Shown in pieces: positions 35,626 to 54,783 of a stretch of 64,000 bases of DNA. Under the pieces are notes generated by a model. That model searched no databases, was not told the origin of the DNA, and saw only the letters and a list, made by a program, of their open reading frames with translations. The translations under genes and the position numbers were made by a program. The DNA comes from Bacteroidia bacterium (GTDB lineage Bacteria; Bacteroidota; Bacteroidia; NS11-12g; UBA9320), in NCBI GenBank assembly GCA_965216465.1, contig CBDCFW010000001.1, forward strand, positions 192,001 through 256,000. The letters run 5' to 3'. How positions within the stretch are numbered: the stretch's first letter is position 1; every line of letters begins with the position of its first letter.

Positions 35626-36758
35626 TAGCTTAGTACAGCCTTAAGTGCTTCTTGAATTCTTTGACGTTCAATGTCAGTAAGATTAGAACCGCTTGGTAAA
35701 CACAATCCAATTTCGAATAGTTTATCAGAAGTACCATTTACATAGCTCGGAAAGTCTTTAAAAACAGGTTGTTGATGCATTGGTTTCCATAACGGTCTAC
35801 ATTCTATATTCTCTTCCATTAAGGCTAGGCGAATGGTTTCCCGGCTAATATTCCTCTCGTTTGGCTTTACAAGAATGCAGGTAAGCCAGTGATTGGAGAA
35901 GAATTTAATATCCGGTTCTTTGAAAACCTCGATGAATGGGTAATCTTTAAAGAAGGATTGATACCATTCGTTCATAGCTCTTCTTTTGTCAATCCATTGA
36001 TCAAGAACTTCAAGCTGCCCACGACCAATTCCTGCTGCAATATTGCTCATGCGGTAATTAAACCCAATTTCTTCATGCTGGTAATGCGGTGTATTCTCTC
36101 GGGCTTGTGTAGCTAAGAATGTTGCTTTCTTCACATAATCTTCATTGCGCGACACAAGAGCCCCTCCGCCAGAGGTTGTAATAATTTTATTACCATTAAA
36201 TGAATAGATACCTATCTCGCTAAAGGTCCCCATTTTTTGACCATTATATTTCGCACCTAGTGCTTCAGCGGCATCCTCAATAATCGGAATATTGTGTTTA
36301 GCACAAATGGCCAACAGCTCCTCCATTTTGGCTGGCATACCGTAAAGATGAACCAATACACATGCTTTAGGTTTTTTGCCTTTTGCGATTCTATCTTGAA
36401 TTGCCTCTTCTAAAGTTTCAGGACTCATATTCCAGGTACTGGGTTCTGAATCGACAAAAACTGGAATTGCCTTTTGATAACGAATTGCATTCGCAGAAGC
36501 CGAAAACGTGAAGCTAGAGCAAAGTACCTCATCATCTTGTTCTACTCCTAGAAGTATTAATGCTAAATGCAAAGCTGCTGTTCCCGAACTTAACACCGTA
36601 CAATGCTCGATGTTGTTATACGTTGCTAGCTCTTTTTCCAGACCGTTCACATTTGGTCCTAAAGGAGCAATCCAATTGGTATCAAACGCTTCTTGAATGT
36701 ATGCAATTTCGTTTCCTCCCATATGAGGAGAAGAAAGATATATTCTATCCTTAGTCAT
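35625..36758 (-). CDS. DegT/DnrJ/EryC1/StrS sugar aminotransferase (PglE/EpsN-like)
   Basis: YLSSPHMGG, NWIAPLGP, SGTAALH, EDAAEALG, SFNGNKIITTSGGG, LCLPSGS. Confidence 0.92.
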   Translation of the reverse strand: MTKDRIYLSSPHMGGNEIAYIQEAFDTNWIAPLGPNVNGLEKELATYNNIEHCTVLSSGTAALHLALILLGVEQDDEVLCSSFTFSASANAIRYQKAIPVFVDSEPSTWNMSPETLEEAIQDRIAKGKKPKACVLVHLYGMPAKMEELLAICAKHNIPIIEDAAEALGAKYNGQKMGTFSEIGIYSFNGNKIITTSGGGALVSRNEDYVKKATFLATQARENTPHYQHEEIGFNYRMSNIAAGIGRGQLEVLDQWIDKRRAMNEWYQSFFKDYPFIEVFKEPDIKFFSNHWLTCILVKPNERNISRETIRLALMEENIECRPLWKPMHQQPVFKDFPSYVNGTSDKLFEIGLCLPSGSNLTDIERQRIQEALKAVLS

Positions 36759-37341
36759 TATTAGTTCTTATAATTCTTGCAGGGTTTCCTACAGCAATGG
36801 AGTTATCTGGAATTGGCTTTGTCACCACCGATCCTGCTCCAATTTTACACCACTTTCCAATCGTTATTCCTGGAATAATTGTAGATCCAGCTCCTACAAT
36901 TGTACCTTCTCCGACTGTAACAGAACCACATAAGGTTACTTGGGGTGCAATGTGGCAGTAATCTCCAACTTCACAATCGTGATCTACGCTTGCTCCGGTA
37001 TTAATTATTGTGTGGCGTCCAATTGTGCTATCTGCTTGAACTATACTTCCATGTAAAAGCTGACTTCCATCCCCTATTTTCACAGACTCGTCTACTTCAG
37101 CCGTAATGGCCTGCACAATTCCAAATTGATGAGTGATTTTCTCAACAACTATTTTTCGGATTTTATTGTCTCCTATTGCCACAACAACCTTCTCGTCAGC
37201 ATGAAGCTCACTGCTATACTTGGTTATTGGTTTGTTCCGAAAAGTATCTCCTTTCGGATTGTCGTCGAAGAATGCTATTACGTTTTGCTCAAGTGCTGAG
37301 GCAACAACTTTTCCGTGTCCACTTGCTCCAAATACTATCAT
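36751..37341 (-). CDS. Sugar acetyltransferase (PglD/NeuD family)
   Basis: GASGHGKVV, AIGDNKIR, hexapeptide repeats, DHDC, VGNPAR. Confidence 0.9.
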   Translation of the reverse strand: MIVFGASGHGKVVASALEQNVIAFFDDNPKGDTFRNKPITKYSSELHADEKVVVAIGDNKIRKIVVEKITHQFGIVQAITAEVDESVKIGDGSQLLHGSIVQADSTIGRHTIINTGASVDHDCEVGDYCHIAPQVTLCGSVTVGEGTIVGAGSTIIPGITIGKWCKIGAGSVVTKPIPDNSIAVGNPARIIRTNND

Positions 37342-37952
37342 TGATTTCCTTTAAATTTCTCCATAGTGGCAGAAGAATCGCTTGATATACCTTCAATCTT
37401 CAGCACTTTGAAAATGGTCATAAATATTATTTTAATGTCTAACACCAATGAATGGTTTTCGACGTACCATACATCTAGCCTAAACTTTGTAGTCCAGTCT
37501 AAGCTGTTTCGTCCATTCACTTGTGCCCAACCCGTAATTCCAGGTCTTACATTATGCCGAGCTCGTTGCTCGTCATTGTAAAGTGGCAAGTATTCCATTA
37601 ATAATGGTCTTGGACCAATTAGCGACATGTCACCTTTTATCACATTTATCAACTGTGGAATTTCATCTAAAGAAAGCTTTCGCACCCAACTCCCTATGGT
37701 GGTTAAACGCTCTGCATCACTAAGAAGCTCACCATGCTCATCCTTTCTATCGTTCATAGTCTTGAACTTAATTAAGGTAAATGGTACCTCATTTCTTCCT
37801 GGTCTAACCTGGGTAAAGAAAACGCTTCCTTGATTCGCAACAAACAAGAAAATAATGGTGATCAGAAATATCGGCAAAAGCAGTGTAAAGCCTAGTAAGG
37901 CAATAACAAAGTCAATACATCTCTTTAGAAAATTTCTATACAGCAATCTCAC
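37338..37952 (-). CDS. Initiating phosphoglycosyl transferase (PglC/EpsL-like)
   Basis: KRCID, KFKTM, SLDEIPQL.NV.KGDMSLIGPRP, RPGITGWAQVNGRN. Confidence 0.93.
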   Translation of the reverse strand: MRLLYRNFLKRCIDFVIALLGFTLLLPIFLITIIFLFVANQGSVFFTQVRPGRNEVPFTLIKFKTMNDRKDEHGELLSDAERLTTIGSWVRKLSLDEIPQLINVIKGDMSLIGPRPLLMEYLPLYNDEQRARHNVRPGITGWAQVNGRNSLDWTTKFRLDVWYVENHSLVLDIKIIFMTIFKVLKIEGISSDSSATMEKFKGNQ

Positions 37953-39132
37953 GAATTAGTTTCTTGGTCTGTTCTTCAACCTGCAAATGTTCATGGGCAA
38001 ATTTAAGAGCATTATTTCCCATAGTATTTAACTCGTTTGAGTCTTTATTAACAAGTAATTGAATTCCTTCAATAATGGTGTTTGCAGACTCAGGCTCAAC
38101 CACAACACCACAATTGTGCGTTTCGACAAAAAGCGGAAACCCAGCATAGGCCAACAAAATTGGCTTTGCTGCAAGACAGTACTCTACGTACTTATTTCTA
38201 CTATTTCCGTATTTATAGAGTTCTGATTTTAAATATCCATCAAAAAGTATATCGCAATCTTTTAGAAATGCGACCACTTCATTTTGATTAATTTTATTGA
38301 AAAAGTGAATGTGTTCTGAACTTGCTAGTTTTTTGGACTCAGTTAGCAACGGACCTTCACCTAAAATCACAAATTTTATTTTCTGAGGTTGAAGTTGATT
38401 GGCTGCTTCAATAAATACATCTAGGCACGAAGACATGTTAACACTTCCTGCATAACCAACAATCTTCCAACCTTCTTCTTTGAATTTATCAAGCGACTCA
38501 TGGTATCGATGATTCTCTTTGTAATTCATGTTTGGGTTTACCAGATGCGGAATCCAAGTTACACTTTTTGACCTACCAAGCACAGACTCTACATGTTCAG
38601 TGAGATTGGGCATGGTTCCAATAACTAAGTCTGCCTGGTCGTACCCTTTACGCTCAATTCTTGCTAAATAACGATACGCAATATTAAGTCTCGATAGTTT
38701 CTTGATGCGCTTTAAAATTAGAGGCCAAATATCCCGAACCTCAAACACCAGCTTGCAGTTGTACCTTTTCTTGTATCGAATACCGTTCAATATGCTGAGC
38801 AACGACAGCGAAGACACAATTACCACATCAGCAGGTTCATTTTTATTTTGCCTAAGAAACCCTCTTAACCTTCTTTCAAAACTCATCCAACTTAAGATTC
38901 GACGAATTCCATATACTTTAGAATACTTGAACGTTTTTATCCAACTAACTTTAACCCCATCGACCACATCGTTGTAATTTACGGGCAGTGTTTTTAGATT
39001 GTGGTTAGAGTCAGAAAGCACTAAGTGCACCTCATGACCTTGCTTTACCATTTCTCTAGAGAGGTAAATGTGCCTTGTATCCATGCCAAAAGGATTATAG
39101 GCCGCATATTTTGAGATATAAAGAATTTTCAC
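37936..39132 (-). CDS. Glycosyltransferase family 4 (WbuB-like)
   Basis: FEVRDIWP, GYAGS, NKYVEY. Confidence 0.85.
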   Translation of the reverse strand: MKILYISKYAAYNPFGMDTRHIYLSREMVKQGHEVHLVLSDSNHNLKTLPVNYNDVVDGVKVSWIKTFKYSKVYGIRRILSWMSFERRLRGFLRQNKNEPADVVIVSSLSLLSILNGIRYKKRYNCKLVFEVRDIWPLILKRIKKLSRLNIAYRYLARIERKGYDQADLVIGTMPNLTEHVESVLGRSKSVTWIPHLVNPNMNYKENHRYHESLDKFKEEGWKIVGYAGSVNMSSCLDVFIEAANQLQPQKIKFVILGEGPLLTESKKLASSEHIHFFNKINQNEVVAFLKDCDILFDGYLKSELYKYGNSRNKYVEYCLAAKPILLAYAGFPLFVETHNCGVVVEPESANTIIEGIQLLVNKDSNELNTMGNNALKFAHEHLQVEEQTKKLIREIAV

Positions 39133-40265
39133 TCTTTCGTGTTAAGTGCCATTTGATATTCTTTTAGCAAGGCTTCCCACACAACTCCTTGATCAAAATT
39201 AGCTATAATATCTTGTTGAGCTTTGGCTGCCAACTCTTGTCTTAGAACTTTGTCTTTATGCAGAATGGTCATTTTGTCGACCAATTCGGTTTCATTTTTT
39301 GGCTCAACCAACAAGCCGTTGATCCAATCTTTCACAATTTCATTGCATCCATTAATATCTGAAAGTATCATAGCCTTACCCATCGCCCCTGCTTGTAGCG
39401 GAACATTTGGAAACCCTTCACGATAACTCGGAAAAACTAAAATATCCGAAAGTGCTATATAAGGTCTAACATCCTGCTGGTAGCCAACAGAGATGATATC
39501 GGTATTCAATTTTATTTTCTGGTGTGTTTCTCTAGGAAGTGGATCAAGGTCTTCTTCAAAGTGGCCTACTAAGATTAATTTTGTTTTGGGAAGTGCACGG
39601 TTTACTTTTTCGAAGCTATTGATCAGCTCGACGATTCCTTTATCTGTAACTATTCTTCCTATAAAGATAAAAACTGTCTCATCGGTAATCCCAAATTCCT
39701 TCTTCTGCCAATCAATTACTTCCTTTGAAACCGCATTCTCATTAAAGGTTTTGAGATTAATGCCGTTGGTTGTTCCATTTCCTACAACTTTGAGCTTTTT
39801 GCTGTAATAAAGCTTCTTAGCAATGTAGTCTTTCAATCCAAAGCTGTTGCAATATACATGTGTTGAGCAGCTATAGGTAAACAGCTCAATCAGTTTGAGC
39901 ATGTTACGAAAGATTTTATTCTTTTCCATTAGCGGAAGCCCACCAACGGTATGCATTCTAATTTTAACACCACAAATTTTTGCTGCCAACATTCCTATCA
40001 AGCCTGCCTTCGGAGTATGTGAGTGTACAATATCCGGTTTGAGGTCTTTTATAATTTTAATGAGCTCAAGCAAAGATTTAAAATCTTGAAGTGGACGAAG
40101 CTTTCTATTGAAAGATTCTACTTCATTGTGGTTTGGATGATTAAAAAAGCCATGAGAAGCAGTGTGCATATCAAAATCGTTCGATTCCATGTATGCAATC
40201 TGACCGGTTAGCAGCTTTTCAAGCGATAGACTAATCGTTGTTATTCTCAGTATTTTGGGCTTCAA
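39129..40265 (-). CDS. Glycosyltransferase family 4 (CapM/PglA-like)
   Basis: HSHTPKAGL, GRIVTDKG, SYREGFPNVPLQA. Confidence 0.9.
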   Translation of the reverse strand: MKPKILRITTISLSLEKLLTGQIAYMESNDFDMHTASHGFFNHPNHNEVESFNRKLRPLQDFKSLLELIKIIKDLKPDIVHSHTPKAGLIGMLAAKICGVKIRMHTVGGLPLMEKNKIFRNMLKLIELFTYSCSTHVYCNSFGLKDYIAKKLYYSKKLKVVGNGTTNGINLKTFNENAVSKEVIDWQKKEFGITDETVFIFIGRIVTDKGIVELINSFEKVNRALPKTKLILVGHFEEDLDPLPRETHQKIKLNTDIISVGYQQDVRPYIALSDILVFPSYREGFPNVPLQAGAMGKAMILSDINGCNEIVKDWINGLLVEPKNETELVDKMTILHKDKVLRQELAAKAQQDIIANFDQGVVWEALLKEYQMALNTKE

Positions 40266-41400
40266 TTTGTTGGTAGTTTAAGTAACGTTGCCGTAGTTTA
40301 AGCGTGTAAATTATCGGAAACATAGCTAATAAAATCCAAAAAGGTGTAAAACGTAACCCCATATGCGTAAGGCTATAAAGAATTACGGGAAGCACATATA
40401 AGCTGGTACGCCACCTCAATCCTTTAAAAAGACTAAAAAAGAACAAGAGAAACAACGTGAATCCAGGTATCCCATAACTAAAGATAAGATTACCAAAAGA
40501 CGAGTGCATTTCGTGTTTAGTGATGTACGTATCAAATCTTTCATACATTCCTTCCCCAGAACCCAGTATCAAGAAATAGGGGTGATTGTTAATGCGGTCG
40601 TATCCTCTGTACTCCCACTCAGTAATATTGGCTTTTTTCGACCCATCATCCACTCGTTTAAGAACATAGGCTGTTTGACTAACCCCTTTTTCATTCTTCA
40701 CAACGAAGTAATAGCTTATTGAAAAGATGATTATGACCGCTATCAATCCATTGCCTTTAAGTATCTGGCTATCAAATAAATAAAATACGGACAAGAAAAG
40801 AATACCTCCTACTGCTGCCTTTGATGCACTAATTAAGGTCATCAACAAGCAGGCTAAAAATACGACTACAAAGAATACTAGATTAATTTTATCAAGCTTG
40901 TTGAGAATTACAAATATGCTAAGCATCAGCAGTGCATAGTATCCCAGCTGATTAGGTGTTGTAAAAAAGAAAGACGGTCTTAAGTCATCAAAGTTTTCCG
41001 AGCCAAAAAGAAGGTAATATCCTATTTGAATGACCACCGAAAGTACAATACCATATTGAGTAAACTTAACAAATTTCTTGATATTGATATTTGCCAAACC
41101 AATGGCATAGATAAGCACCAAGGCATTGTATAAGTAAAAGATTGTCGATATAAGTGGTAGTCCTTTATAATTCCCAAAGTAGATGATGAACAATACTAAG
41201 TTAGCAAGTAATGTATAACCCAAGAACATTTGCAATGAGCCTTTTTTGAATGTTGCTCTCTTGAAACCTGCTCTCAAAACAGAACCAGAAAGTATCATTA
41301 CACTAATCATGAGATAGTCGCTTACCTGAGGCGTTCCACTAGGAAACCAGTAGAATGGATTCAGAATTAAAAAAAGTGCCCACAAATAATAACGCATCAC
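40231..41400 (-). CDS. wzy: O-antigen polymerase-like membrane protein (Wzy)
   Basis: About 10 TMs, PNQLGYY, SASKAA, LGSGEG...EMHSSFG periplasmic loop; position inside a Wzx locus. Confidence 0.7.
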   Translation of the reverse strand: MMRYYLWALFLILNPFYWFPSGTPQVSDYLMISVMILSGSVLRAGFKRATFKKGSLQMFLGYTLLANLVLFIIYFGNYKGLPLISTIFYLYNALVLIYAIGLANINIKKFVKFTQYGIVLSVVIQIGYYLLFGSENFDDLRPSFFFTTPNQLGYYALLMLSIFVILNKLDKINLVFFVVVFLACLLMTLISASKAAVGGILFLSVFYLFDSQILKGNGLIAVIIIFSISYYFVVKNEKGVSQTAYVLKRVDDGSKKANITEWEYRGYDRINNHPYFLILGSGEGMYERFDTYITKHEMHSSFGNLIFSYGIPGFTLFLLFFFSLFKGLRWRTSLYVLPVILYSLTHMGLRFTPFWILLAMFPIIYTLKLRQRYLNYQQIEAQNTENNND

Positions 41401-42557
41401 ATTTTGCTAATAAATTCGGCTACAACATCGTCACTCTCACCAGAGTTTGATGCAAAATTTTCAAGGTAGTTTCGATAGTTTCTAAAATGATAATGTTCTC
41501 CGCTTAAGAACTCATCGAGTTGACCAGCTATTTCTGGTTCGTAAATATTTAATCCGTAAGCAACACTGTCTTGTACGTAGTCTCCAAGATAGTCGTGATT
41601 CTTAAGCTTAACCACACCCAACTTTTTACCATGTATAATCACATTAATACCCACGGTAGAAGCAAACACAATTCCAGCATCTACAGTATTGATGATAATA
41701 TCAATATCTGAGCTACTATCGTACACTTTCACATCTTTTAAATCATTGTTTTTCAGTATCTTTCGAAGATATGAAGCTGATTCTCTAGGATGATTTTTGA
41801 AGATAACCTCAAGCTTTCTTTTATGTCTCTTGCCGTATTCAACAAGCGTTCTGGCGAGATCGATATACAAGGCAAATTTTTCTTCTGTAGTCGTAAACTT
41901 TTGGTCGTCAATGGGGTTTCCAAATATGGCAACTCGACGTATTTTATCGGGGATAGAATCTAATGATTGCTGTATGTAAAGCGACTTGTCGTAACCCGGA
42001 CTTCCTAGGGCTACAACTTCTGTGTTTGATGCAACCACCTGATCAAAATAGGTTTTAGATTTTCGACCCCAAGCAATTAGCACATCTGCTCCAGAACCTC
42101 CATATTTTTTCGTTTCTTCAACGGGCAAAGGAAAGCGGATTCCTTCTTGCATTAGGATGGTCTTAATCTTTCTTTGTTTAAGATATCGTAAGATGTAGTT
42201 CCCTGGATAGGCCGTGTCATTAAGCATAACAGCATGTGTCGTATTCTTAAACCATTTTTTCAATTTAGGTTTAAGTACAACAGTCCAAAATCCCCAACGC
42301 AGAATCCCTGAAATCATTACGGTTAATTTACTTGGTTTTTGACCTTCTTGTGGTTTTGCCTTAGGTACATTGATATTGAACTTTTTATAGGGAAGACCAA
42401 CATCATTTAAGATTTGTTCTGGAGTGTTAAACTTTCTTACCTCACAAAGTGAAACAAACTTAGTTGGGACACCTCTTTTTACAAGCTTTCTTGCAACTGG
42501 AAGCGTAATTAGAACATGGTGATTCGGATTAGTTATGATAAAATCAACTTGCTTCAT
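41397..42557 (-). CDS. Putative ulosonic-acid (sialyltransferase-like) GT-B glycosyltransferase
   Basis: MQEG, AWG, KNHPRE and STVG motifs resemble the E/D-G and HP motifs of CMP-sugar-using transferases. Confidence 0.5.
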   Translation of the reverse strand: MKQVDFIITNPNHHVLITLPVARKLVKRGVPTKFVSLCEVRKFNTPEQILNDVGLPYKKFNINVPKAKPQEGQKPSKLTVMISGILRWGFWTVVLKPKLKKWFKNTTHAVMLNDTAYPGNYILRYLKQRKIKTILMQEGIRFPLPVEETKKYGGSGADVLIAWGRKSKTYFDQVVASNTEVVALGSPGYDKSLYIQQSLDSIPDKIRRVAIFGNPIDDQKFTTTEEKFALYIDLARTLVEYGKRHKRKLEVIFKNHPRESASYLRKILKNNDLKDVKVYDSSSDIDIIINTVDAGIVFASTVGINVIIHGKKLGVVKLKNHDYLGDYVQDSVAYGLNIYEPEIAGQLDEFLSGEHYHFRNYRNYLENFASNSGESDDVVAEFISKM

Positions 42558-43647
42558 CAATTAATTTAAAATAAGATTCTACACCTTCATTCACTTGATA
42601 TTTCTTCACGCTTTTCTTAGCTGCTTCTCCATACTTTTCTCTTAATGCGCTATCTGAAGCTAAGCTCAGCATTGCACCTGCTAAAACATTCGAGTCTCCT
42701 ACAGGAACTAAGATTCCGTTCTTTTCATGCTCAATGATTTCGTTTGGACCCGTTGGGCAATCTGTCGAGATGCATGCAACACCCGCTGCCATTGCTTGAA
42801 TGAGCACTCCAGGCATCCCTTCATGCAATGAGCTTAGAACAAATACATCAGCGTGTTTTAGGTATTTATAGGGATTTGGATCAAAGCCCACTAGTTGCAC
42901 ATTGTTCTTTAGGTTTAGAGCCTCAACTAACTGTTCAACTTTTGATTTTAGGGGACCTTTACCGAGAATAATCAATTCTGCTTCTTGAGTTTCAGTAAGC
43001 TTTTTAAATGCATGCAATAAGTTGGGATAATCTTTTTGTTTAACAAATCGACCTATAGCTATGAATTGCAGTTTAGCTTCTGATTTTTTAATCTCCAATG
43101 GCTCATCAAGCTGATTATAAAAGTGATTATCAATCAACGGATTATTCACCACAAATACCCTGTTGCTCTCAAGCTTAAATCTCGCAATTAGCTGATCTTT
43201 AATTCCGTGAGACACTGCTGTAACTAGTGAAGCTCGCTTATAGAGCCTTTTCTTGAGCCCCAAGAGCATTGACTTTTTAAAACTGGAGGAATAGGTTCTA
43301 TCTAAAGAGTTTCGTTCCGATACTATGGTGGTTCCTTTAAACCTCATGAATTGGGTTGCAAGCATCATTGGAATTGACATTCCACCACAAGTGCTAAATA
43401 CAACATCAAAATTCTCTTTTCTCAATAATCGTTGAATTGGCCTTATGCAAAACCACAGCGACGAAGCTCCCAGATTGTATACCGCAACATTTTTGTTCAA
43501 GTCACTTTGAAATTCACCATTGAGATGCATCAACGCCAAAGAGACATCGTACTTTTCTTTATCGTAATTGTTCAGCAGATTCAAGGTTACTCGATCAGCA
43601 CCGCCGTAACCCAAGCTTGGCCGTATGAACAATATTTTACGCTTCAT
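42544..43647 (-). CDS. Glycosyltransferase family 4 (PglJ/WabH-like)
   Basis: GYGGADRV, GRFVKQKD, NPYKYL, EGMPGVLIQAM, DCPTGPNEI. Confidence 0.88.
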   Translation of the reverse strand: MKRKILFIRPSLGYGGADRVTLNLLNNYDKEKYDVSLALMHLNGEFQSDLNKNVAVYNLGASSLWFCIRPIQRLLRKENFDVVFSTCGGMSIPMMLATQFMRFKGTTIVSERNSLDRTYSSSFKKSMLLGLKKRLYKRASLVTAVSHGIKDQLIARFKLESNRVFVVNNPLIDNHFYNQLDEPLEIKKSEAKLQFIAIGRFVKQKDYPNLLHAFKKLTETQEAELIILGKGPLKSKVEQLVEALNLKNNVQLVGFDPNPYKYLKHADVFVLSSLHEGMPGVLIQAMAAGVACISTDCPTGPNEIIEHEKNGILVPVGDSNVLAGAMLSLASDSALREKYGEAAKKSVKKYQVNEGVESYFKLIDEAS

Positions 43648-44263
43648 TAAGATAAAATACGTTAATTGACTTTTGTGCAATTAACTTATGTATTGGAAGG
43701 TCTCTTTGGTTAATCAATACATCTAACTTTTTTCGTCCCTGAATCACCAAAACCACTTGATTGGCATCTACAATTGGATGATAATTTAAGCTTAATCTAT
43801 GTGTTCCATCGCTAGGGTGCACGCAGCTAAACACATTAGTATCAAAAGATTGCTCAGGAAATACCGATGCAAAATGGCCATCCTCTCCCATGCCTAGCAA
43901 AACTAAATCAAGCTGATTTGGCAATTTCGTTGCATAAGCTTCAACACTTTCTTCAATCGTACATCCTTCCGTTTGAAAGGGATAAAATTTAACCTGGTCT
44001 TTTCTCAACCACAATTTATACGATTCAGCAAAATTATTGCGGCGGTCGCGTTGAGGAACAAATCGTTCATCCACCCAAAACACTGACAATTCTGACTTCG
44101 ATGAACCAATTGGGTTGTCTCCAAGATATTCAAAAATGGGCACCGGTGTAGAGCCACCACTAATAGCAACTGAAGTTTCGCGCTGTTGATTAGCAAGATT
44201 TAATAATAGGCCATGCACAGCCATATTGATGTCGTCTTGATCTATAAAAGTGGTAATCCTCAA
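43637..44263 (-). CDS. pgl: 6-phosphogluconolactonase
   Basis: AISGGSTP, FWVDERFVP, LGMGEDGHFASVFP, RLSL. TTG at 44263 lies directly after the HAD stop. Confidence 0.85.
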   Translation of the reverse strand: MRITTFIDQDDINMAVHGLLLNLANQQRETSVAISGGSTPVPIFEYLGDNPIGSSKSELSVFWVDERFVPQRDRRNNFAESYKLWLRKDQVKFYPFQTEGCTIEESVEAYATKLPNQLDLVLLGMGEDGHFASVFPEQSFDTNVFSCVHPSDGTHRLSLNYHPIVDANQVVLVIQGRKKLDVLINQRDLPIHKLIAQKSINVFYLNEA

Positions 44264-44264
44264 A

Positions 44265-44912
44265 TTACTTGAAGTAGTTGGTGATGACATCTTCTAGGTT
44301 TTCAATTGCAGATTCACCTTCGTCAATCCAAAAGTCGTGAAGCTCTGGTGAGTTTACAGCCTGAAAGTTTACCTGTGTTTTTTGAGCTGCATAAAAGTCG
44401 GTAGTTGCATCGCCTAAAAACAATGCTTCATCCGCTTTAATTTCAAATCGATGTAGACAATCGTTAACTATTGACTCCTTACTTTTTGGAGAACCCCAAA
44501 CTTCTTCAAAGTACGTATTTAGTTCTCGCTTTTCAACGATGGTATGAAGTTCGCGGTAAGGAGTTCCTGAAGCAACGACACAACGTATGCCGCTGGTTTT
44601 TAAATAGTTGAGAAGTTCTAAAGCACCTGGAATAAAGCTAGTCTTCAGGACTTCATTTAATACTATTTCGCTAAAACGATTTCCTAAGTTCTCTGACTCT
44701 TCAGCGGTAATTTCTTTTCCAAGCAGTTCACGATAAAACCAATCAAACTTTTCATATCTTGAAATTCCTTGGTTGTCAATATGATATTGTGTTATGGCTT
44801 CAAGATGTTCTGGATAGTCCTCAAATACTTGCGGGAATGCCTTTGTTTTGATATTGGCCGAATCAAGGACCACACCATCAAAATCGAAAAATACCAGTTT
44901 AATTTTGCTCAC
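44265..44912 (-). CDS. HAD-superfamily phosphatase
   Basis: FDFDGVVLDS, ASGTP, GSPKSK, GDATTD. Confidence 0.88.
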   Translation of the reverse strand: MSKIKLVFFDFDGVVLDSANIKTKAFPQVFEDYPEHLEAITQYHIDNQGISRYEKFDWFYRELLGKEITAEESENLGNRFSEIVLNEVLKTSFIPGALELLNYLKTSGIRCVVASGTPYRELHTIVEKRELNTYFEEVWGSPKSKESIVNDCLHRFEIKADEALFLGDATTDFYAAQKTQVNFQAVNSPELHDFWIDEGESAIENLEDVITNYFK

Positions 44913-45792
44913 CAGCTTCTTTTTCTTTTCTCATTTCTTCTAATAACTGAATGATACCTTGACCCATGTCAACATATTCGTTCGTTACTAGCTTTTTACC
45001 AATAGAAGGAAGATAAGTGTAAGGCGTGATGTTGTAATGACCATTCTTGCCGCTTGTAGTTTCCTCGTAGTTAATGTTCACCTTTTTATCTAGAATCTCC
45101 TCAAACATCTTGTAGAGTTCAGAAACCTCTAAGCGATCATTTCCTGTTAAGACATAATGTTTATTCTCATACTGCTTGCCCAAAATTTGAGCGCTTAGCT
45201 TCGCGGCATCGTATACGTGGATGTATTCCCGTTTGTCAGAAGGAGCTCCATCGTGATTGATTCTTTCATTGCTAATAAAATTGTTTAAGAGTCTATAAAC
45301 CCCATTGGTTTCGTCTGTACGAGGACCATATAAACTACCGTATCTCAAAACGGTATAATTCAAATCGTATTTTCGGTGAAATTCCTCGATGTAGGCCTCA
45401 CAAGCCTGCTTGCTACAACGATAAAACCCTCCTTGAGCACTAAAAACATAAACCGACGATCCAAAAACAAACCGCTTTATGTTGTTTTGAACACATCCAT
45501 TCAAAAGCACCGCCGTTCCTTTAATATTGATCTCAATAGAGTCTATAGGTCTTTCTTTTGCTTCATTTAAGTCTGCTAAGGCTGCCAAATGATATACGTA
45601 ATCAAACCCTTTTAGTGCTTCATTAACAAAATCTTGATTGCAAACATCGCCTTGAACAAACGACTGGTCGTGGCGTATATAAGCCGATTCATTGAGGTCT
45701 AAAATGGTTACTTCATGTCCTTCATCCGACAATGCATCTGCAATGTGACTTCCGAGAAACCCCGCTCCTCCTGTAACTATAATCTTTGCCAT
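44899..45792 (-). CDS. NAD-dependent epimerase/dehydratase (extended SDR)
   Basis: TGGAGFLG, HLAA, SSVYV, YRCSK (YxxxK), RYGSLYGP. Confidence 0.88.
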   Translation of the reverse strand: MAKIIVTGGAGFLGSHIADALSDEGHEVTILDLNESAYIRHDQSFVQGDVCNQDFVNEALKGFDYVYHLAALADLNEAKERPIDSIEINIKGTAVLLNGCVQNNIKRFVFGSSVYVFSAQGGFYRCSKQACEAYIEEFHRKYDLNYTVLRYGSLYGPRTDETNGVYRLLNNFISNERINHDGAPSDKREYIHVYDAAKLSAQILGKQYENKHYVLTGNDRLEVSELYKMFEEILDKKVNINYEETTSGKNGHYNITPYTYLPSIGKKLVTNEYVDMGQGIIQLLEEMRKEKEAGEQN

Positions 45793-46712
45793 TAATTAAA
45801 AAATGCTATAATTTTCTTAGCGCACTCCATCTCCATGTTGATACGCACCTCCTTAGCATACGAGCCAATATGTGGGGTTAAAAGCACTCGATCTTGCTCA
45901 ATTAACTCTCCGCTATAAGGTTCAGCTTCAAATGTATCGATGTATGCCTTTGCCTGTTCATTTTCTTTAAGGAAAGAAATCAACTCGTTTTCGTCAATGA
46001 GTCCCCCCCTGCTTGTATTTACAATCATGGCATCAGATTTCAGCAATGCGAACTCCGATTTCCCAATCATATGTTTATTGCTTGGTGTAAACGGAACATG
46101 AAGAGAAACGACATCTGCATTCTTCAATATTTCACCCTTGCTTGCTTTTCGAATTCCATTACTATTGGCAAACTCTTCGTCCCAAAACAAGTCTGTAGCT
46201 ATAATTTCAGTTTCAAATGGTTTAAGCAATTCGACGAGTCTCTTGGCAACTTTTCCTAGCCCAATGAGTCCAATTTTCTTACCCTTTAACAACGATCCCA
46301 TTGGCTTCTTCCAAATGTTTTGCTTCATGCTCGCATGAGCAAAACTTATATTTCGATGCAGGTCTAGAATTCCACCTAAACACAGTTCTGCGACACCATC
46401 AACATGAGCAATAGGAGTGTTTTCTACTGGAATGTTTAAGTTTTTTGCAGCCTCTAAGTCAACACTATCCATTCCTGTTCCTAGCCTACAGATATACCTC
46501 AACTGAGGATGCTGATTAAAAGTCTCATTATCAATTGGTTCTGTTCCGGCAATTAAGCCATCTATACCGCTAAGTAATGCTAAAGATTGCTCCTTGCTAA
46601 GGGTTTTTCCATGCGGATTAAGCTTAACTTCAAAGCCCGCATCTTTAAGCATTTGTAAAGGTTTAGGATTAACCTTTCCAAATGAGCTTGTTGAGATAAG
46701 TATCTTTTTCAT
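45792..46712 (-). CDS. D-isomer-specific 2-hydroxyacid dehydrogenase (phosphoglycerate dehydrogenase-like, no ACT domain)
   Basis: GTGMDSVD, GLGKVA, NTSRGGLIDE, DTFEAEP, TPHIGS. Confidence 0.88.
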   Translation of the reverse strand: MKKILISTSSFGKVNPKPLQMLKDAGFEVKLNPHGKTLSKEQSLALLSGIDGLIAGTEPIDNETFNQHPQLRYICRLGTGMDSVDLEAAKNLNIPVENTPIAHVDGVAELCLGGILDLHRNISFAHASMKQNIWKKPMGSLLKGKKIGLIGLGKVAKRLVELLKPFETEIIATDLFWDEEFANSNGIRKASKGEILKNADVVSLHVPFTPSNKHMIGKSEFALLKSDAMIVNTSRGGLIDENELISFLKENEQAKAYIDTFEAEPYSGELIEQDRVLLTPHIGSYAKEVRINMEMECAKKIIAFFN

Positions 46713-47461
46713 TACAGTCCACTTTCAGATGATTGTTCAAGTAATTTCGTAATTAGAGCTGGGTTATTAACCCACCATTCGCTAATTCCAATATCAAAAT
46801 GAGTATGTACATCTCTTCCTGTTACCCAGGTTCTAATAATAGGAGCTGAGCGTTTGCCCATCCACCACCAGGGATTAACTCCATCTTCGCTATATACGGT
46901 TTGATGTCTAAACGCCCACACACCTTGGTCGTAATAATATGCTTTCTTGTACGATTGGCGTTCCGTTGAAACTTTTCTATTCTTATCGCCATAGGCTTCC
47001 AAAATCCCTTCTTCGTTAATTTCCATTGCTCGATTTGGATGGTCGTCTTGGGCCTCCCAAACGGTCATGCAACTATCTAGGCTCGGATCGTTATCTAATT
47101 TGGCTAAGCATTTATCAATAATTTCTCCGTTGATGTATACCGTATTTCCTAAAAGTAAAACGACATTCTGAATTTCAGGATGTTTTTCTTTAACCCACTC
47201 CACGGCATGTTTAATTACAATTCCGTGATTTACAGTATCGCCGCTTAACTCTTCTGGTCTTGGAATTATAGTGGCTCCTAGCTCCTTTGAGGCATTGGCA
47301 ATTAGGTCTCCATCTGTTGATACAAAGATTTTATCAATCTTCTTGGCATCCATTGATGCTTGAATTGGATAGTGAATCATAGGCTTTCCTGAAACCATGA
47401 AAACATTTTTGTTAATTATCGATTTACTTCCTGCGCGGGCAGTGATAATTGCTACATTCAT
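46712..47461 (-). CDS. Acylneuraminate-type cytidylyltransferase (NeuA/KdsB family)
   Basis: ITARAGSKSIINKN, VSTD, RPEELSGD. Confidence 0.85.
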   Translation of the reverse strand: MNVAIITARAGSKSIINKNVFMVSGKPMIHYPIQASMDAKKIDKIFVSTDGDLIANASKELGATIIPRPEELSGDTVNHGIVIKHAVEWVKEKHPEIQNVVLLLGNTVYINGEIIDKCLAKLDNDPSLDSCMTVWEAQDDHPNRAMEINEEGILEAYGDKNRKVSTERQSYKKAYYYDQGVWAFRHQTVYSEDGVNPWWWMGKRSAPIIRTWVTGRDVHTHFDIGISEWWVNNPALITKLLEQSSESGL

Positions 47462-48573
47462 TTATTTATAAATTCTAATATTTTTTTTGCTCGTATATCC
47501 CAAGTGTATTTAGAAACTAAATCTTCATAGGCTTGGGTGCTTAGTTTGTCTCTTTGGTTTTTGTTCTCATTTAGAAGGAGAATTGCTTTTTCCCACTCTT
47601 CTACGTTGTCGCAGGTTGCAAACATGCAATTGTCAGCATTCAATACTTCATGAAGTACCGGAAGATCGGAAGCAATAATTGCTTTTTTAGCCTCCATATA
47701 TTCAAATATTTTAAGTGGCGACATATAGCTAGAGGTATTGTTACCGCTTGCAATAGTTACATTTTCTTGATAGGGAGCCAGTAGTATATCGCATTTTTTA
47801 CGAGCGATTACAGCTTTGCTGGGACTAACAAATCCATGGAAATGCAGATTTTCTTTCGTAACCGAGTCTGGATAGTAATCCAGTCTTTCCATTTGGGCTA
47901 CGGTACCTCCAATGATATGAAAATCGATTTGCGGTAATCTCTCACTCAATTGCACTATTAATTCCAGGCCCCTACCCTTCGAAATTGTTCCAACATAGCC
48001 CACTTGAGTTCTTTCTGCTTTACCAGGCCAAGTGTAGCTATTCAATTCTTCTAGAGTGGTATTGTAAACCGTTGCACCGTCGTGAACCGCTAATATTTTC
48101 TCACCAGTTATGAAATCTTGTTCACTTTTTAGTCTTTGCTTTAATGCATTCGACATGGTGACCAAGCCCAGAAAATTGGAGTGCGTGCAAAGCAGTGTAA
48201 AAACCTTCTTTCTCATACCATCCATTGCAGTGAATGGGTTGTGAGTTTCGTATGCGACCTTATATCCAAGTCTAGTAGCTAAATAGCAAGAAAATAATGA
48301 TCTGCCAAAAACAATATCTGGATTAAATTGCCTTAAAATTCTGCGAGCCCTAAAGGCATGTAACCACAAACCTATTTTGGGCAATGGTTCATTTGAAAAC
48401 TCTATTCTAAATGAAGATGTTCCGTACGCCTTGCTTACATCTCCCCAATTCCCTCTGAAGGCCGTTAACATAACATCGTGATTCTTTGAGAGAGCATTGC
48501 AAATTTGCATAACGTGCACACTGTTTGCCTTCTTTGACGGAATAGTTGAGTCTGATAAGTAAGCAATTCTCAT
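47458..48573 (-). CDS. Glycosyltransferase family 4
   Basis: PSKKANSVHVM, YETH, GYVG...GRG, SPLKIFEYM. Confidence 0.88.
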   Translation of the reverse strand: MRIAYLSDSTIPSKKANSVHVMQICNALSKNHDVMLTAFRGNWGDVSKAYGTSSFRIEFSNEPLPKIGLWLHAFRARRILRQFNPDIVFGRSLFSCYLATRLGYKVAYETHNPFTAMDGMRKKVFTLLCTHSNFLGLVTMSNALKQRLKSEQDFITGEKILAVHDGATVYNTTLEELNSYTWPGKAERTQVGYVGTISKGRGLELIVQLSERLPQIDFHIIGGTVAQMERLDYYPDSVTKENLHFHGFVSPSKAVIARKKCDILLAPYQENVTIASGNNTSSYMSPLKIFEYMEAKKAIIASDLPVLHEVLNADNCMFATCDNVEEWEKAILLLNENKNQRDKLSTQAYEDLVSKYTWDIRAKKILEFINK

Positions 48574-48574
48574 G

Positions 48575-49447
48575 TTACTTGAAGCGGTATAGCTGAGCAA
48601 TTGGTTTCCAAAATAAATTCTTTAAGAAAGAATGCTTAGTTGCTCGTTTATATCCATTTTGCTCTAAGTCTTGACCCGCAATGGTTTCAAATTTGCTAAT
48701 CTCTGAAGCTTCAAGTTTCTCCTTCCATTTGTTAATTGCATTGGCAATTGGTCGCTTGTCAATATTTTGGTGAAGCTCTTTTCCATAACGTTCCGGCACC
48801 TGATAATTCATCACGCTTTCACCTGGCTGCAATCCTATAAATGACTCGAGTTTCTTAAAGGCTTCATCTGTGTTTTGAATCAACTCTTCATACTTTAACA
48901 GCATAGTATTGTCTGGATGCTCCGCTTTAATCTTCTGTGCTAACCTCGCATACTGTTTCCACTGCATTGCTGAACGAATGGGATTGGTTTCAAAGGCTTT
49001 TTGTGTTACCGAATAAGTGCTATTCTTTTGAGAGCTAAAAATGGCCCTTCCATCTCGAACAAGTATGATAAACTTTGCGTTTGGAAAGTGAGCCTTCAAG
49101 TCTTGATAAACGTGGATGTAGTTTCCTTTTTTAATTCCGATAGTTGCAGCATTGCTTGTCTTAGTATTCTTATATAGCTCACACAATTCATTTAAAAATC
49201 CGCCTTTCGATTGCATGGCATACCCTAGCTCCTCAATATCGCTGTCAGCAATTTGCCAGTCTTTCATCTTCTTATCTTGGAGAATTAAATCTACCCCCCT
49301 ATCAGCTGTCCACGCATGATGATCAAGAAGCACACTTTGCATAATGTTTGACTCAGGCGGAATAATTACGGGATACCGCTCGCATAATTCTTTTGCTAAA
49401 AATGTAGAGCCAGAACGAGATAAATAAAAAATAAAAAATGCAGGCAT
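48575..49447 (-). CDS. Sulfotransferase family protein
   Basis: 5'-PAPS loop SRSGSTFL, 3'-phosphate motif RDGRAIFSS, LKYEEL. Confidence 0.85.
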   Translation of the reverse strand: MPAFFIFYLSRSGSTFLAKELCERYPVIIPPESNIMQSVLLDHHAWTADRGVDLILQDKKMKDWQIADSDIEELGYAMQSKGGFLNELCELYKNTKTSNAATIGIKKGNYIHVYQDLKAHFPNAKFIILVRDGRAIFSSQKNSTYSVTQKAFETNPIRSAMQWKQYARLAQKIKAEHPDNTMLLKYEELIQNTDEAFKKLESFIGLQPGESVMNYQVPERYGKELHQNIDKRPIANAINKWKEKLEASEISKFETIAGQDLEQNGYKRATKHSFLKNLFWKPIAQLYRFK

Positions 49448-52023: not shown

Positions 52024-52923
52024 CTAGGCTATTTTACGAAGTCCTTTCAGAATCTTCTCCCTCAGTAAGAATAGATTATACGAAACATTAAACTTGATAT
52101 TTGTCCAGCTCATGCCTAAGTTTCCTTCTTCATATCCTAACAGTTTAATATGTTTTTTCAGCTTGTAATTCGCTACGGGTATTAATTTCGAGTCGGCATT
52201 TTTCCATCGGTATACCGCAGAAGAATCAAACAACTTAGAAACATCTCCAAAGGATGAATTGTTGGTGTACTTCTTGCCGTCTCTTATTATGAGCTGTTCC
52301 AAATCTGGGGTAATGTTTGTTCCCAAAAACTCAGTAAGTTCTTTGCAGATTTCATCCTTTTGTAGGATTAAATCCTCGTACTTTAGAAAGTAGAAGTTCG
52401 AATATTGGTTAGAAAGTTCAATGGCTAGATTTAAGCTTTCAGTCATATCGCGTATGTATCTGCGAATTTCAAACTTCGCAAATCTGTTTTCTGATGAAAG
52501 GAGTACATCTCTAGGATCTCTATAAATGTAAATTACTTTATGGTTATTAATCAGTAATTGTTCTAAGTAATAAAGTTCTTCTGTTTTTTTAATACCTACG
52601 AGGTTAACATTCTCCGATTCATCGAGCTTTGATAGCTCATGTAGACATTGAACAAATAACTCGTTTACCGTATTAAACTTGCCTGCGTTGATGTTTAACT
52701 CGATATCAAAATTAAAACACTCTGCCTCCAAGCTACTGACTAAGATATTCTTTTCTTTAGGGCCTAGTGGCTTATTCATGTCTCTGATATCCAAGTCTTT
52801 ACCGTTATTAAATATCGACCTTAAAAAATCAGAATACACCACAACGTGATGCTGACTGTTGAGCAGGTTGCATAGAAATGTGGTTCCTGACCTCATTTTC
52901 CCGGTTATAAAAACACTATTCAT
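52024..52923 (-). CDS. Sulfotransferase family protein
   Basis: GKMRSGTTFL, RDPRDVLLS, LKYEDL. Confidence 0.85.
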   Translation of the reverse strand: MNSVFITGKMRSGTTFLCNLLNSQHHVVVYSDFLRSIFNNGKDLDIRDMNKPLGPKEKNILVSSLEAECFNFDIELNINAGKFNTVNELFVQCLHELSKLDESENVNLVGIKKTEELYYLEQLLINNHKVIYIYRDPRDVLLSSENRFAKFEIRRYIRDMTESLNLAIELSNQYSNFYFLKYEDLILQKDEICKELTEFLGTNITPDLEQLIIRDGKKYTNNSSFGDVSKLFDSSAVYRWKNADSKLIPVANYKLKKHIKLLGYEEGNLGMSWTNIKFNVSYNLFLLREKILKGLRKIA

Positions 52924-53722
52924 TTCCTGAATATACCTTGTCTTTTAAACTTCTAATTTGTTCTAAATTGTTTTTATAAAAATCACTGATCTTCTTAACA
53001 ATTTCGCTGTTTAAACTTGCTTGCTGACGCATACTATTTATGTCGAGTAACGCTGTTTCTTGCAAGAGCAGTTTACGTACATCTGCATACGATGGTATTT
53101 CAATTTTATCGAATCGATGAAAGAGTTGTGAGATCAATTCAAAATCTTCTGGATAATCAGATGTGATTCTAATATTTTCCAGTTTTAGATGTTCAGGTGT
53201 TTCAACTCTTAACACATTAAAAACATCTGGCTGATTAATTAAATGGCCCCAGATTTCCGTATCTATTTCTTCCTTTATTTGACAAACAACTTTTAATGCC
53301 CTTGTCTTCAATCCATATACCGCACAACCAATTGGCAATCCTTCGATATAGGCAAAGTCAGCCTGGTTCTCAATCAGTTCTGTTTTTAGCTGATGTGCCA
53401 TGTCAATTGAAAACAATGGGTTTTCTCCGGTTATATTGATTACGTAGTCTAAGCTATGGGTCTCAGCAGCATCTTTTAACCTTGTTAGCACATCTCCTTC
53501 ACTTCCTCTAAAACATTGAATACCTGCTTTTTTCGCAATCACTTCTAATGGATTATCCTGATAGAAGGTTGACGTACAGAGTATTACATTTTCTGAAGGA
53601 ATTACTTGCTTTGCTCGATCAATCACACGTTCAACCATCGTTTTGCCGTTAAGGCCTAACAATAGCTTGTAGGGCAATCTTGATGATTTCAAACGTGCAG
53701 TAATCAGAAATCCTATTTTCAT
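52916..53722 (-). CDS. Cytidylyltransferase (SpsF/KdsB-like)
   Basis: ITARLKSSRLPYK, FRGSEGDVL.R, ITGENP, RITSDYPEDF. Confidence 0.85.
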   Translation of the reverse strand: MKIGFLITARLKSSRLPYKLLLGLNGKTMVERVIDRAKQVIPSENVILCTSTFYQDNPLEVIAKKAGIQCFRGSEGDVLTRLKDAAETHSLDYVINITGENPLFSIDMAHQLKTELIENQADFAYIEGLPIGCAVYGLKTRALKVVCQIKEEIDTEIWGHLINQPDVFNVLRVETPEHLKLENIRITSDYPEDFELISQLFHRFDKIEIPSYADVRKLLLQETALLDINSMRQQASLNSEIVKKISDFYKNNLEQIRSLKDKVYSGNE

Positions 53723-54777: not shown

Positions 54778-54783
54778 ATTGTT

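Follow-up and report, generated by a model that had tools for sequence, protein, structure and literature searches.

The 64,000-nucleotide (nt) stretch of a UBA9320 genome (marine-type Bacteroidota) analysed here, which we call the window, carries within a polysaccharide locus a cassette of five genes that probably serves to make and activate an acidic sugar of unusual type, with no synthase of the customary sialic-acid kind. The genes encode a cytidylyltransferase (CMPT1), a D-2-hydroxyacid dehydrogenase (HACID), an extended SDR protein (SDR), a HAD-type hydrolase (HAD) and a 6-phosphogluconolactonase-type protein (PGL). We read the cassette as a self-contained pathway to an acidic sugar activated with cytidine monophosphate (CMP), other than a NeuB-derived nonulosonic acid, for a Wzy-polymerised surface glycan, and give this reading a probability of about 40%. 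The product is possibly a CMP-hex-2-ulosonic acid.

The polysaccharide locus occupies the minus strand from about 31.3 to 63.6 kb of the window, in a genome (G000) that is rated 100% complete and has a GC content of about 0.37-0.40. Profile matches in Pfam and NCBIfam confirm that five minus-strand open reading frames (ORFs) exist in the order and families given in a preliminary description of this DNA. CMPT1 (46712-47461) matches PF02348 CTP_transf_3 at 69.6 bits; HACID (45792-46712; 306 amino acids (aa), without an ACT domain) matches PF02826 at 164 bits and PF00389 at 73 bits; the GalE-like SDR (44899-45792) matches PF01370 Epimerase at 146 bits; HAD (44265-44912), an HAD-IA hydrolase, matches PF13419 HAD_2 at 72 bits; and PGL (43637-44290) matches PF01182 Glucosamine_iso/6PGL at 133 bits. 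Translational coupling of the five genes is plausible, because each frame runs into the next (overlaps of 1, 1, 14 and 26 nt in turn). The gene set is beyond chance, as it recurs in 25 loci elsewhere.

Conservation of the cassette and its independence of NeuB

We scanned one genome per species for related loci and sought the partner genes by tblastn and blastp. Among the 26 loci obtained, 25 contain CMPT1 at 69-87% identity; these come from Bacteroidota and one planctomycete, with three belonging to genus-mates of the window genome and about ten to Roseivirga, whose cultured carriers include R. echinicomitans KMM 6058 (L017) and R. seohaensis SW-152 (L021). HACID is adjacent to CMPT1 in all 25, and SDR and HAD are each present in 24. 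SDR is missing in the planctomycete Aureliella (locus L030), and HAD is unseen only in L012, which stops inside the SDR gene. PGL is found in 12 of the 23 loci that reach past HAD. The remaining locus (L033), in which the CMPT1 homologue is 40% identical, has none of the partner genes. Conservation extends to the flanks: a GT4 glycosyltransferase follows the cassette in 23 loci, including all that reach that far, a 387-aa protein that we call unk387 is encoded downstream in 21 and a Wzy-like membrane protein beside it in 20, and the usual continuation, in many loci, is a further GT4 and then PglC and PglD. Homologues of the GT4 upstream of CMPT1 (27-51% identity) precede the cassette in 21 loci.

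The genes are also found together in other orders, reading HACID-SDR-x-HAD-PGL-x-CMPT in a locus from another class of Bacteroidota (L041; CMPT 45% identical) and HACID-SDR-HAD-CMPT in a planctomycete metagenome-assembled genome (MAG) whose frames are apparently broken (L040). HACID orthologues at 63-67% identity were found in 3 of the 40 relatives that were searched (4 of 41 with the window genome). The same five genes follow one another in G014 and G024, in the latter with an inserted methyltransferase, and the G008 contig ends after its HAD gene. The co-occurrence on which the preliminary description depended is thus borne out by comparison of gene neighborhoods, both widely (25 loci) and without neuB (G014). 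Among the genomes sampled, CMPT1 orthologues turned up in 4 of 401 Bacteroidota, one of them the window genome, and in 3 of 401 Planctomycetota. The cassette is rare in the sampled genomes, and it is mobile, travels as a unit and is independent of NeuB.

Several loci contain accessory genes. A gene of the Gfo/Idh/MocA family, 61-69% identical among its copies, accompanies the cassette in L007/L008 (L007:3720-4772), L016 (13344-14393), L030 (7895-8962) and L032 (6503-7561) and is also present in L045 (8579-9607), where it occupies the place of a missing HACID; its best models, inositol 2-dehydrogenase and UDP-GlcNAc 3-dehydrogenase, both score far below cut-off. A Methyltransf_23 gene is inserted between SDR and HAD in G024 (L007:7313-8104) and G008 (L009:2776-3567) and between CMPT1 and HACID in L027 (9747-10517), and an FkbM methyltransferase lies just upstream of the cassette in R. 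echinicomitans (L017:8129-8887). The cassette product may be O-methylated in some lineages.

More distant HACID-SDR pairs, with HACID at 37-38% and SDR at 44-48% identity, occur together with an FkbM methyltransferase in two further loci. One of them (L042:4645-14414) encodes an HpcH/HpaI aldolase, a KdsB-like protein passing two KdsB subfamily cut-offs, a B12-radical-SAM protein, an LIC12162-family transferase and a TIGR04326 protein, and the other (L043:393-8338) encodes an HAD protein, a radical-SAM/SPASM protein, a weak CTP_transf_3 match and a TIGR04326 protein. Proteins of the LIC12162 or LIC13510 family are present in both. These loci resemble additional routes that reach CMP-activated keto acids without NeuB. 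The HACID-SDR pair is the deepest conserved unit and may serve several ulosonic-acid-type pathways.

The preliminary description had called the route NeuB-free, which holds for the cassette but not for the locus, since a NeuB set is encoded upstream at 52916-59817. This set comprises LegB, a formyltransferase, NeuB, NeuC, a PtmE-like gene, a second NeuB-like gene and a second cytidylyltransferase, CMPT2. G014, which is 100% complete and has the cassette, yields a single NeuB-family match of 37.5 bits; its counterpart in the window genome is a DAHP_synth_1 protein (243 bits), and the match is a KdsA/DAHP-synthase-type cross-match. G000, G024 and G008, each with the two NeuB genes, also have CMPT2; none was found in G014. 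Roseivirga loci with NeuB encode their own separate NeuA-like protein, which is 26-30% identical to CMPT1. CMPT1 is therefore not simply LegF, the identity that the preliminary description had named as fatal to its proposal, because the cassette occurs without NeuB in G014 and a separate cytidylyltransferase, CMPT2 or a NeuA-like protein, tracks the NeuB sets. We also rejected CMPT1 as the housekeeping KdsB, for which a separate gene (199 bits) exists elsewhere in the window genome.

CMPT1 itself is far from the characterised members of its superfamily. Its match to PF02348, for which the gathering cut-off is 22.6 bits, covers only residues 3-134, and it passes none of the models built on characterised enzymes (PseF TIGR03584, 106.3 against a cut-off of 205.7; KdsB models, at most 47 against at least 193). 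Its best relative in the PDB is PseF (6ifd, 80.6 bits), with NeuA proteins at 61 and 53 bits and KdsB at 24.5. Identity to CMPT1 is 63-90% throughout the best 120 of 633 database matches, and the source names among them are Bacteroidota, Roseimaritima (Planctomycetota), Lewinella, Deltaproteobacteria, Thermoanaerobaculia, Kofleriaceae (Myxococcota) and Acidobacteriota. ESM Atlas clusters offer only the generic name acylneuraminate or legionaminic acid cytidylyltransferase, and some homologues are labelled CMP-N,N'-diacetyllegionaminic acid synthase by JGI. By sequence comparison, CMPT1 appears to represent a distinct and very conserved clade of the NeuA/KdsB superfamily.

The lactonase step and its companion enzymes

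PGL of the window scores 104.1 bits against the TIGR01198 pgl model, below the cut-off of 124.45, and its orthologues from five other loci all pass this cut-off (128-169 bits). All 17 solved structures matched by the window protein are 6-phosphogluconolactonases or fusions of these with glucose-6-phosphate dehydrogenase. An assignment as a NagB-type deaminase was rejected, as NagB models reach at most 37 bits compared with 104 for pgl and none of the solved matches is a deaminase. Long fused forms of Pgl were found in four proteins (with 6-phosphogluconate dehydrogenase (6PGD), with a gluconokinase-type kinase and others), none of them to SDR or HAD; an SDR-Pgl unit thus gains no backing from fusions, and such an absence is weak evidence.

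Cassette PGL is the only Pgl-family match in the window genome, and this is part of a wider pattern among 27 genomes, given here as raw counts in which related genomes share states. Fourteen genomes have a cassette with PGL (G000, G014, G024, G041, G052-G056, G058, G059, G061, G062 and G635) and 13 have a cassette lacking it (G043-G051, G057, G060, G814 and G125). None of the former has a match to G6PD_C (PF02781), the C-terminal domain of Zwf, or a second PF01182 match above 100 bits, their other PF01182 matches being NagB-like fusions of about 640 aa or weak ORFs (66-72 bits). A stand-alone Pgl of at least 200 bits is encoded in 12 of the 13 genomes of the latter group, the exception being G125, and Zwf in eight of the 13. 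This complementarity recurs across lineages, as a Roseivirgaceae MAG has cassette PGL and Roseivirga species are without it, and G635 and G814 differ in the same way. R. echinicomitans encodes a stand-alone pgl (192 bits, passing the cut-off), and a gluconokinase of the GntK type that also exceeds its cut-off (128.4 bits) lies two genes away (L034:7270-9451). No G6PD_C match was found in its genome, which implies that 6-phosphogluconate is reached there from gluconate and not from glucose-6-phosphate.

Since cassette PGL and stand-alone Pgl are complementary across the 27 genomes, the Pgl step, which the preliminary description had made part of its route, appears to be required. Read most simply, the pathway depends on Pgl activity and supplies its own where the host has none, and the pattern supports a 6-phosphogluconate-type intermediate. 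The further claim that the substrate is drawn from the oxidative pentose-phosphate pathway did not hold. In profile searches of the complete window genome, G6PD_C, 6PGD, gluconokinase of the GntK type and Edd all went unmatched, the search for edd yielding no first-look candidate at all and so no IlvD-type dehydratase either. Neither the Entner-Doudoroff route nor the oxidative branch of the pentose-phosphate pathway appears to exist in this organism, and in none of the 14 genomes with cassette PGL does this protein stand downstream of a glucose-6-phosphate dehydrogenase (Zwf).

In the absence of Zwf, the lactone must come from a cassette enzyme if PGL is a true lactonase, and SDR would be the only candidate, because 2-Hacid_dh enzymes do not oxidise hemiacetals. 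There is precedent in Azf, an extended SDR that acts as a glucose-6-phosphate dehydrogenase in haloarchaea. Like the Zwf-Pgl and Azf systems, the cassette has a Pgl-type lactonase, and its extended SDR could replace Zwf as Azf does; the difference is that the window genome has neither Zwf nor Gnd and that SDR is nearer to 4-epimerases of nucleoside-diphosphate sugars than to Azf. The sole cassette without SDR, that of Aureliella, is in a genome with Zwf and Pgl, which favours SDR as the first enzyme. SDR proteins of the cassette have invariant YxxxK and many invariant arginines, and they keep an R-x-Y-I-H-x-x-D stretch that we associate with SDR proteins binding nucleotide sugars and that would weigh against this position. 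On these grounds SDR could act either first, as a sugar-6-phosphate 1-dehydrogenase, or last, as a CMP-sugar 4-epimerase, which was the order in the preliminary description; the latter would leave the origin of the lactone in Zwf-less genomes unexplained.

The closest solved relatives of HACID are a short phosphoglycerate dehydrogenase (PGDH; 1wwk, 173 bits) and human PHGDH (150 bits); a 2-ketogluconate reductase (9m0t) scores lower, at 112.7 bits. It passes no equivalog model (TIGR01327 PGDH, 210.5 against 454; PRK11790, 163.5 against 404; GhrB NF011938, 121.1 against 492). The catalytic Arg, Glu and His are conserved. An invariant AGTE replaces the VRS of PHGDH and 1wwk throughout the family, so that an arginine is lost, and an invariant arginine is gained in the C-terminal helix, in the stretch E-V/T-R-x-N-M-E. 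We take the VRS arginine to be the one that contacts the 3-phosphate in PGDH, in which case its loss would suit a longer substrate. We propose that HACID may be a 2-dehydrogenase of a phosphorylated aldonic acid. HAD has the DxD nucleophile motif and weak, below-cut-off NCBIfam matches to the beta-phosphoglucomutase (beta-PGM) family, phosphoglycolate phosphatase and the 6-phosphogluconate phosphatase YieH (34 bits). It may be the phosphatase of a 2-keto-acid phosphate, with a pyrophosphatase role as a live alternative.

The candidate transferase and the surrounding locus

The gene for unk387 (41397-42560, minus strand), a soluble protein with no Pfam match, lies one gene, a GT4, away from the cassette, where the preliminary description had placed a candidate CMP-sugar transferase. 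Its C-terminal part matches the BFO_1060 family (NF046086) weakly, at 33.9 bits compared with a cut-off of 200. An AlphaFold model with a predicted local distance difference test score (pLDDT) of 88.4 has a GT-B fold by Foldseek against the PDB and VIA-align, with Z scores of 22.0 to NeuC, 20.0 to TarL, 18.9 to TagF and 17.0 to a polysialyltransferase. The classes overlap (hydrolysing 2-epimerases 21-22, TarL/TagF 19-20, ordinary GT-B proteins 17-19, polysialyltransferase 17), and comparison of this predicted fold does not separate them. No KpsC/KpsS-type transferase of Kdo is among the 50 fold matches listed, which excludes nothing.

Two motifs, Q138-E139-G140 and H257-P258, are invariant in 19 unk387 sequences. 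The accessible part of PMC5420450 reports D/E-D/E-G and HP motifs for bacterial sialyltransferases and for the Tannerella transferases of pseudaminic (Pse) and legionaminic (Leg) acid, and describes Tanf_01245 and TFUB4_00887, members of the BFO_1060 family with a TagB-like domain, as required for transfer of Pse or Leg derivatives in Tannerella. So far as that account goes, unk387 resembles Tanf_01245/BFO_1060 in its GT-B fold, its HP and E-G motifs and its position beside CMP-sugar genes, and differs in its length (387 compared with about 445 aa) and in the first motif residue, which is Q and not D/E. The model and motifs fit a candidate CMP-dependent transferase, and they suit a CMP-glycoside and a diester of cytidine diphosphate (CDP) alike as donor.

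All other genes of the locus described here are also on the minus strand. Upstream of the cassette, a GT4 (47458-48600; PF00534, 43 bits) overlaps CMPT1 by 4 nt. Downstream, the GT4 between PGL and unk387 (42544-43680) matches PF00534 at 137 bits and a PglJ-like model at 171 bits, below cut-off. It is followed beyond unk387 by unk389 (40231-41400), a multi-pass membrane protein that is hydrophobic throughout, has no family match and is a candidate Wzy-like polymerase, and by the second GT4 of the conserved block (39129-40265; PF00534, 110 bits), which is kept downstream in most loci. A PglC-like phosphoglycosyl transferase (PF02397, 210 bits), a NeuD/PglD-type acetyltransferase (TIGR03570, 208.7 bits, above cut-off) and an LegC/PglE-type aminotransferase (TIGR04181, 387.8 against 420) are encoded at 35625-37952, and this trio suggests an initiating sugar of the repeat unit.

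In the NeuB set, LegB (505.7 bits) is above cut-off, the true NeuB scores 496.8 and NeuC 365.6 bits, and the PtmE-type gene encodes a CBS-nucleotidyltransferase. CMPT2 (52916-53722) is KdsB/SpsF-like and also matches the N-terminal part of a spiro-SPASM model; its best solved relative is 6oew (74.2 bits), which has the generic name Cytidylyltransferase. It is paired, within 52916-54777, with the divergent NeuB-like gene (PF03102, 106.8 bits; NeuB equivalog, 141.7 against 399.65), whose best solved relative is 6ncs (81.6 bits), named N-acetylneuraminic acid (sialic acid) synthetase. This pair co-varies with the true NeuB set within the genus, which points either to synthesis of another ulosonic acid or to an atypical step at CMP-Leg. 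The formyltransferase between LegB and NeuB (57950-58831) is fmt/ArnA-N-like (150 bits, below cut-off), and the legionaminic-type acid of the locus may be N-formylated rather than N-acetylated.

Two genes of the sulfotransferase family are present in the locus (48575-49447 and 52024-52923) and one in the G014 locus (L005:3527-4351), which makes sulfation of the glycan probable. Where the locus ends (32549-35625), an Epimerase-family ORF of 278 aa aligns only from profile position 44, without the N-terminal Rossmann start, and two short GT4 ORFs (292 aa, with the C-terminal domain only, and 326 aa) are 270 nt apart; these may be decayed or split genes. On the plus strand, a 1764-aa protein (26042-31336) with a PKD/polycystin-like repeat region and a C-terminal sorting domain of type B of the type IX secretion system converges on the proline dehydrogenase gene that closes the polysaccharide locus; its sorting domain assigns the organism to Bacteroidota.

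A proposed route and its alternatives

In the route that we infer, together with its substrates and the order of its steps, a hexose-6-phosphate would be oxidised at C1 to the 6-phospho-lactone, SDR being the sole candidate for this step in the Zwf-less window genome, and the Pgl-type enzyme would convert the lactone to 6-phosphogluconate. HACID would oxidise C2 to give 2-keto-6-phosphogluconate, HAD would remove the 6-phosphate and CMPT1 would join CMP to the hemiketal hydroxyl of the hex-2-ulosonic acid. The activated sugar would be transferred by unk387, and this HP-motif GT-B protein, the downstream GT4 and the Wzy-like protein would place it on the unit initiated by PglC, PglD and the aminotransferase. 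In its fullest form, the proposal is an aldolase-free route to a CMP-hex-2-ulosonic acid of the 2-keto-gluconate type, a six-carbon, 3-hydroxylated analogue of Kdo, made wholly by oxidation of hexose-6-phosphate. In hosts whose oxidative pentose-phosphate pathway is lost, it would use a private SDR-type glucose-6-phosphate dehydrogenase with Pgl, a PGDH-derived 6-phosphogluconate 2-dehydrogenase, HAD, a new clade of CMP-sugar synthetases and an HP-motif GT-B transferase, and would have spread by horizontal transfer through several phyla. This full version is possible, though we regard it as doubtful.

The route has parallels in known systems. In the Kdo pathway (KdsD-KdsA-KdsC-KdsB) and the CMP-Kdn route of Bacteroides, a phosphatase acts before CMP activation, and the cassette would likewise pass from a phosphorylated 2-keto sugar acid through dephosphorylation by an HAD enzyme to activation by a CTP_transf_3 enzyme. 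It differs from them in having a 2-hydroxyacid dehydrogenase instead of a KdsA or NeuB synthase, an HAD of subfamily IA and not of the KdsC type, a cytidylyltransferase that falls well short of the equivalog cut-offs for KdsB, PseF and NeuA, and a predicted product with six carbons that keeps the 3-hydroxyl. KguD and TkrA are 2-Hacid_dh enzymes that interconvert 2-ketogluconate or its 6-phosphate and gluconate or its 6-phosphate. The chemistry proposed for HACID is that of KguD, TkrA and GhrB; those enzymes, however, are catabolic and act in the reductive direction, and HACID is not their orthologue.

Several observations weigh against this route. HACID appears by its scores to be closer to short 3-phosphoglycerate dehydrogenases than to GhrB or to 2-ketogluconate reductases. 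The best solved relative of HAD is a BT2127-type inorganic pyrophosphatase (49 bits), with beta-PGM at 35 bits, both weak matches, and its Pfam matches are limited to HAD_2, Hydrolase and HAD, which are of subfamily IA and not of the KdsC/NANP type (IIIA). The score of SDR against the Azf model is weak, at 44 bits and below the cut-off of 400, and its closest solved relatives are all 4-epimerases of UDP- or GDP-sugars (6dnt, 4zrm and 8rdg). G814 (L045) has CMPT1-SDR-Gfo/Idh/MocA-HAD and no HACID, and in the planctomycete G332 neither HACID nor HAD adjoins a CMPT1 homologue of 63% identity, the closest HACID-like gene of that genome being only 32% identical. The HACID-SDR pairs of L042 and L043 may point to another role for these two enzymes, and many of the loci come from related Roseivirga, so that the counts overstate independence. 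We found no hex-2-ulosonic acid in bacterial glycans in the literature searched (subscription journals and carbohydrate-structure databases lay outside its scope), the exception being one listing of an unspecified hexulosonic acid among the sugars of E. coli K-antigens.

Some of these features would be accommodated if CMPT1 coupled CMP to a sugar-acid phosphate, giving for instance CDP-6-gluconate or CDP-6-(2-keto)gluconate, with HAD as a pyrophosphatase drawing the reaction forward and unk387 as a TagF/TarL-like phosphotransferase attaching a sugar-acid phosphate in the manner of teichoic acid synthesis. Campylobacter makes CDP-6-glucitol by a cytidylyltransferase and a reductase, which provides an analogy. 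The unk387 model aligns to TarL and TagF about as well as to other GT-B proteins, the best solved relatives of HAD are the pyrophosphatases just mentioned, Pgl complementarity suits any route via 6-phosphogluconate, and the Tannerella transferases of nonulosonic acids are themselves noted as TagB-like in the accessible part of PMC5420450. We consider this scheme unlikely, as the relatives of CMPT1 are CMP-ulosonic acid synthetases (PseF, NeuA, KdsB) and not enzymes of the TagD, TarI or IspD type, the pyrophosphatase match of HAD is weak and near its beta-PGM score, and the role of HACID becomes no clearer. An improbable alternative of the same order is that HACID, as a 3-phosphoglycerate or glycerate dehydrogenase, and HAD, as a phosphatase, provide a ketal or acyl decoration with its glycerate or hydroxypyruvate, that CMPT1 activates an ordinary ulosonic acid such as Kdo, a product of all these bacteria, and that SDR epimerises the nucleotide sugar of a neighbouring GT4. 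This would agree with the PGDH matches of HACID (TIGR01327, 1wwk and human PHGDH) and the 4-epimerase relatives of SDR; each of the four genomes checked in the genus contains a gene of the KdsA/DAHP-synthase type, and N-glyceroyl nonulosonic acids occur in Bacteroidota, such as Pse5Am7Gra of Tannerella (accessible part of PMC5378307). It gives no reason, however, why the cassette should encode Pgl exactly where the genome has no other. HACID is also under every PGDH cut-off, without an ACT domain and without the Arg of the PHGDH VRS, the housekeeping KdsB is already present, CMPT1 reaches only 24-47 bits in comparisons with KdsB, and no acyl-activating enzyme is conserved with the cassette.

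The presence of a full Leg-type gene set in the window, and the JGI name given to some CMPT1 homologues, raise the question of whether the cassette tailors a nonulosonic acid, with CMPT1 as a CMP-Leg synthetase and HACID and SDR oxidising and re-reducing the CMP-sugar to an epimer. According to the accessible part of PMC13656337, ElaABC of Acinetobacter baumannii KL49 consists of a cytidylyltransferase and, in the same cluster, two oxidoreductases using NAD(P), which turn Leg into 8-epi-Leg. This composition is comparable to that of the cassette, and a gene of the Gfo/Idh/MocA family, to which ElaA belongs, accompanies the cassette in the five loci named above. In that account ElaA, of the Gfo/Idh/MocA family, and ElaC, which is NAD(P)H-dependent, act on CMP-Leg beside lga genes, and the aci and ela modules of Acinetobacter adjoin lga genes (accessible part of PMC5595891). 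The window cassette, in contrast, has no Gfo/Idh/MocA gene but a 2-Hacid_dh, an extended SDR, HAD and Pgl, and the cassette is found elsewhere without leg genes. Such tailoring is very unlikely in our view, given the cassette of G014 without any NeuB and the CMPT2 or NeuA-like gene in every NeuB set examined. The carbon targeted by a 2-Hacid_dh enzyme, moreover, adjoins the carboxylate and would be the anomeric carbon of a nonulosonic acid, and the scheme leaves HAD and Pgl without a role. Least likely of all, we think, is that there is no single pathway and that the cassette is a frozen set of unrelated helpers inherited with the locus (an epimerase for a GT4 donor, a pyrophosphatase and a stray Pgl), although polysaccharide loci are mosaics, each gene taken alone is generically annotated and related Roseivirga genomes account for much of the synteny. 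Two phyla or more keep the set, also when its order is changed (L040 and L041), while its flanks differ, CMPT1 is 63-90% identical across phyla and the presence of Pgl tracks the genome's own Pgl and Zwf content.

We found no description of this gene combination in the literature searched (subscription journals again outside its scope). To our knowledge, every sugar so far found to be activated with CMP (Kdo, Kdn, the sialic, pseudaminic and legionaminic acids, and epimers of these) obtains its 2-keto-acid head from a condensation dependent on phosphoenolpyruvate. If the proposed route is true, the dehydrogenation of a central metabolite to reach a CMP-sugar acid would be a new biosynthetic logic, and the product would probably be a new monosaccharide for bacterial glycans. 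The complementarity between cassette PGL and the Pgl and Zwf of the host is a clear example of a biosynthetic island bringing with it a housekeeping step that is absent from the host. The cassette is compact, consisting of five genes and a candidate transferase, is highly conserved and is present in cultured strains of Roseivirga.

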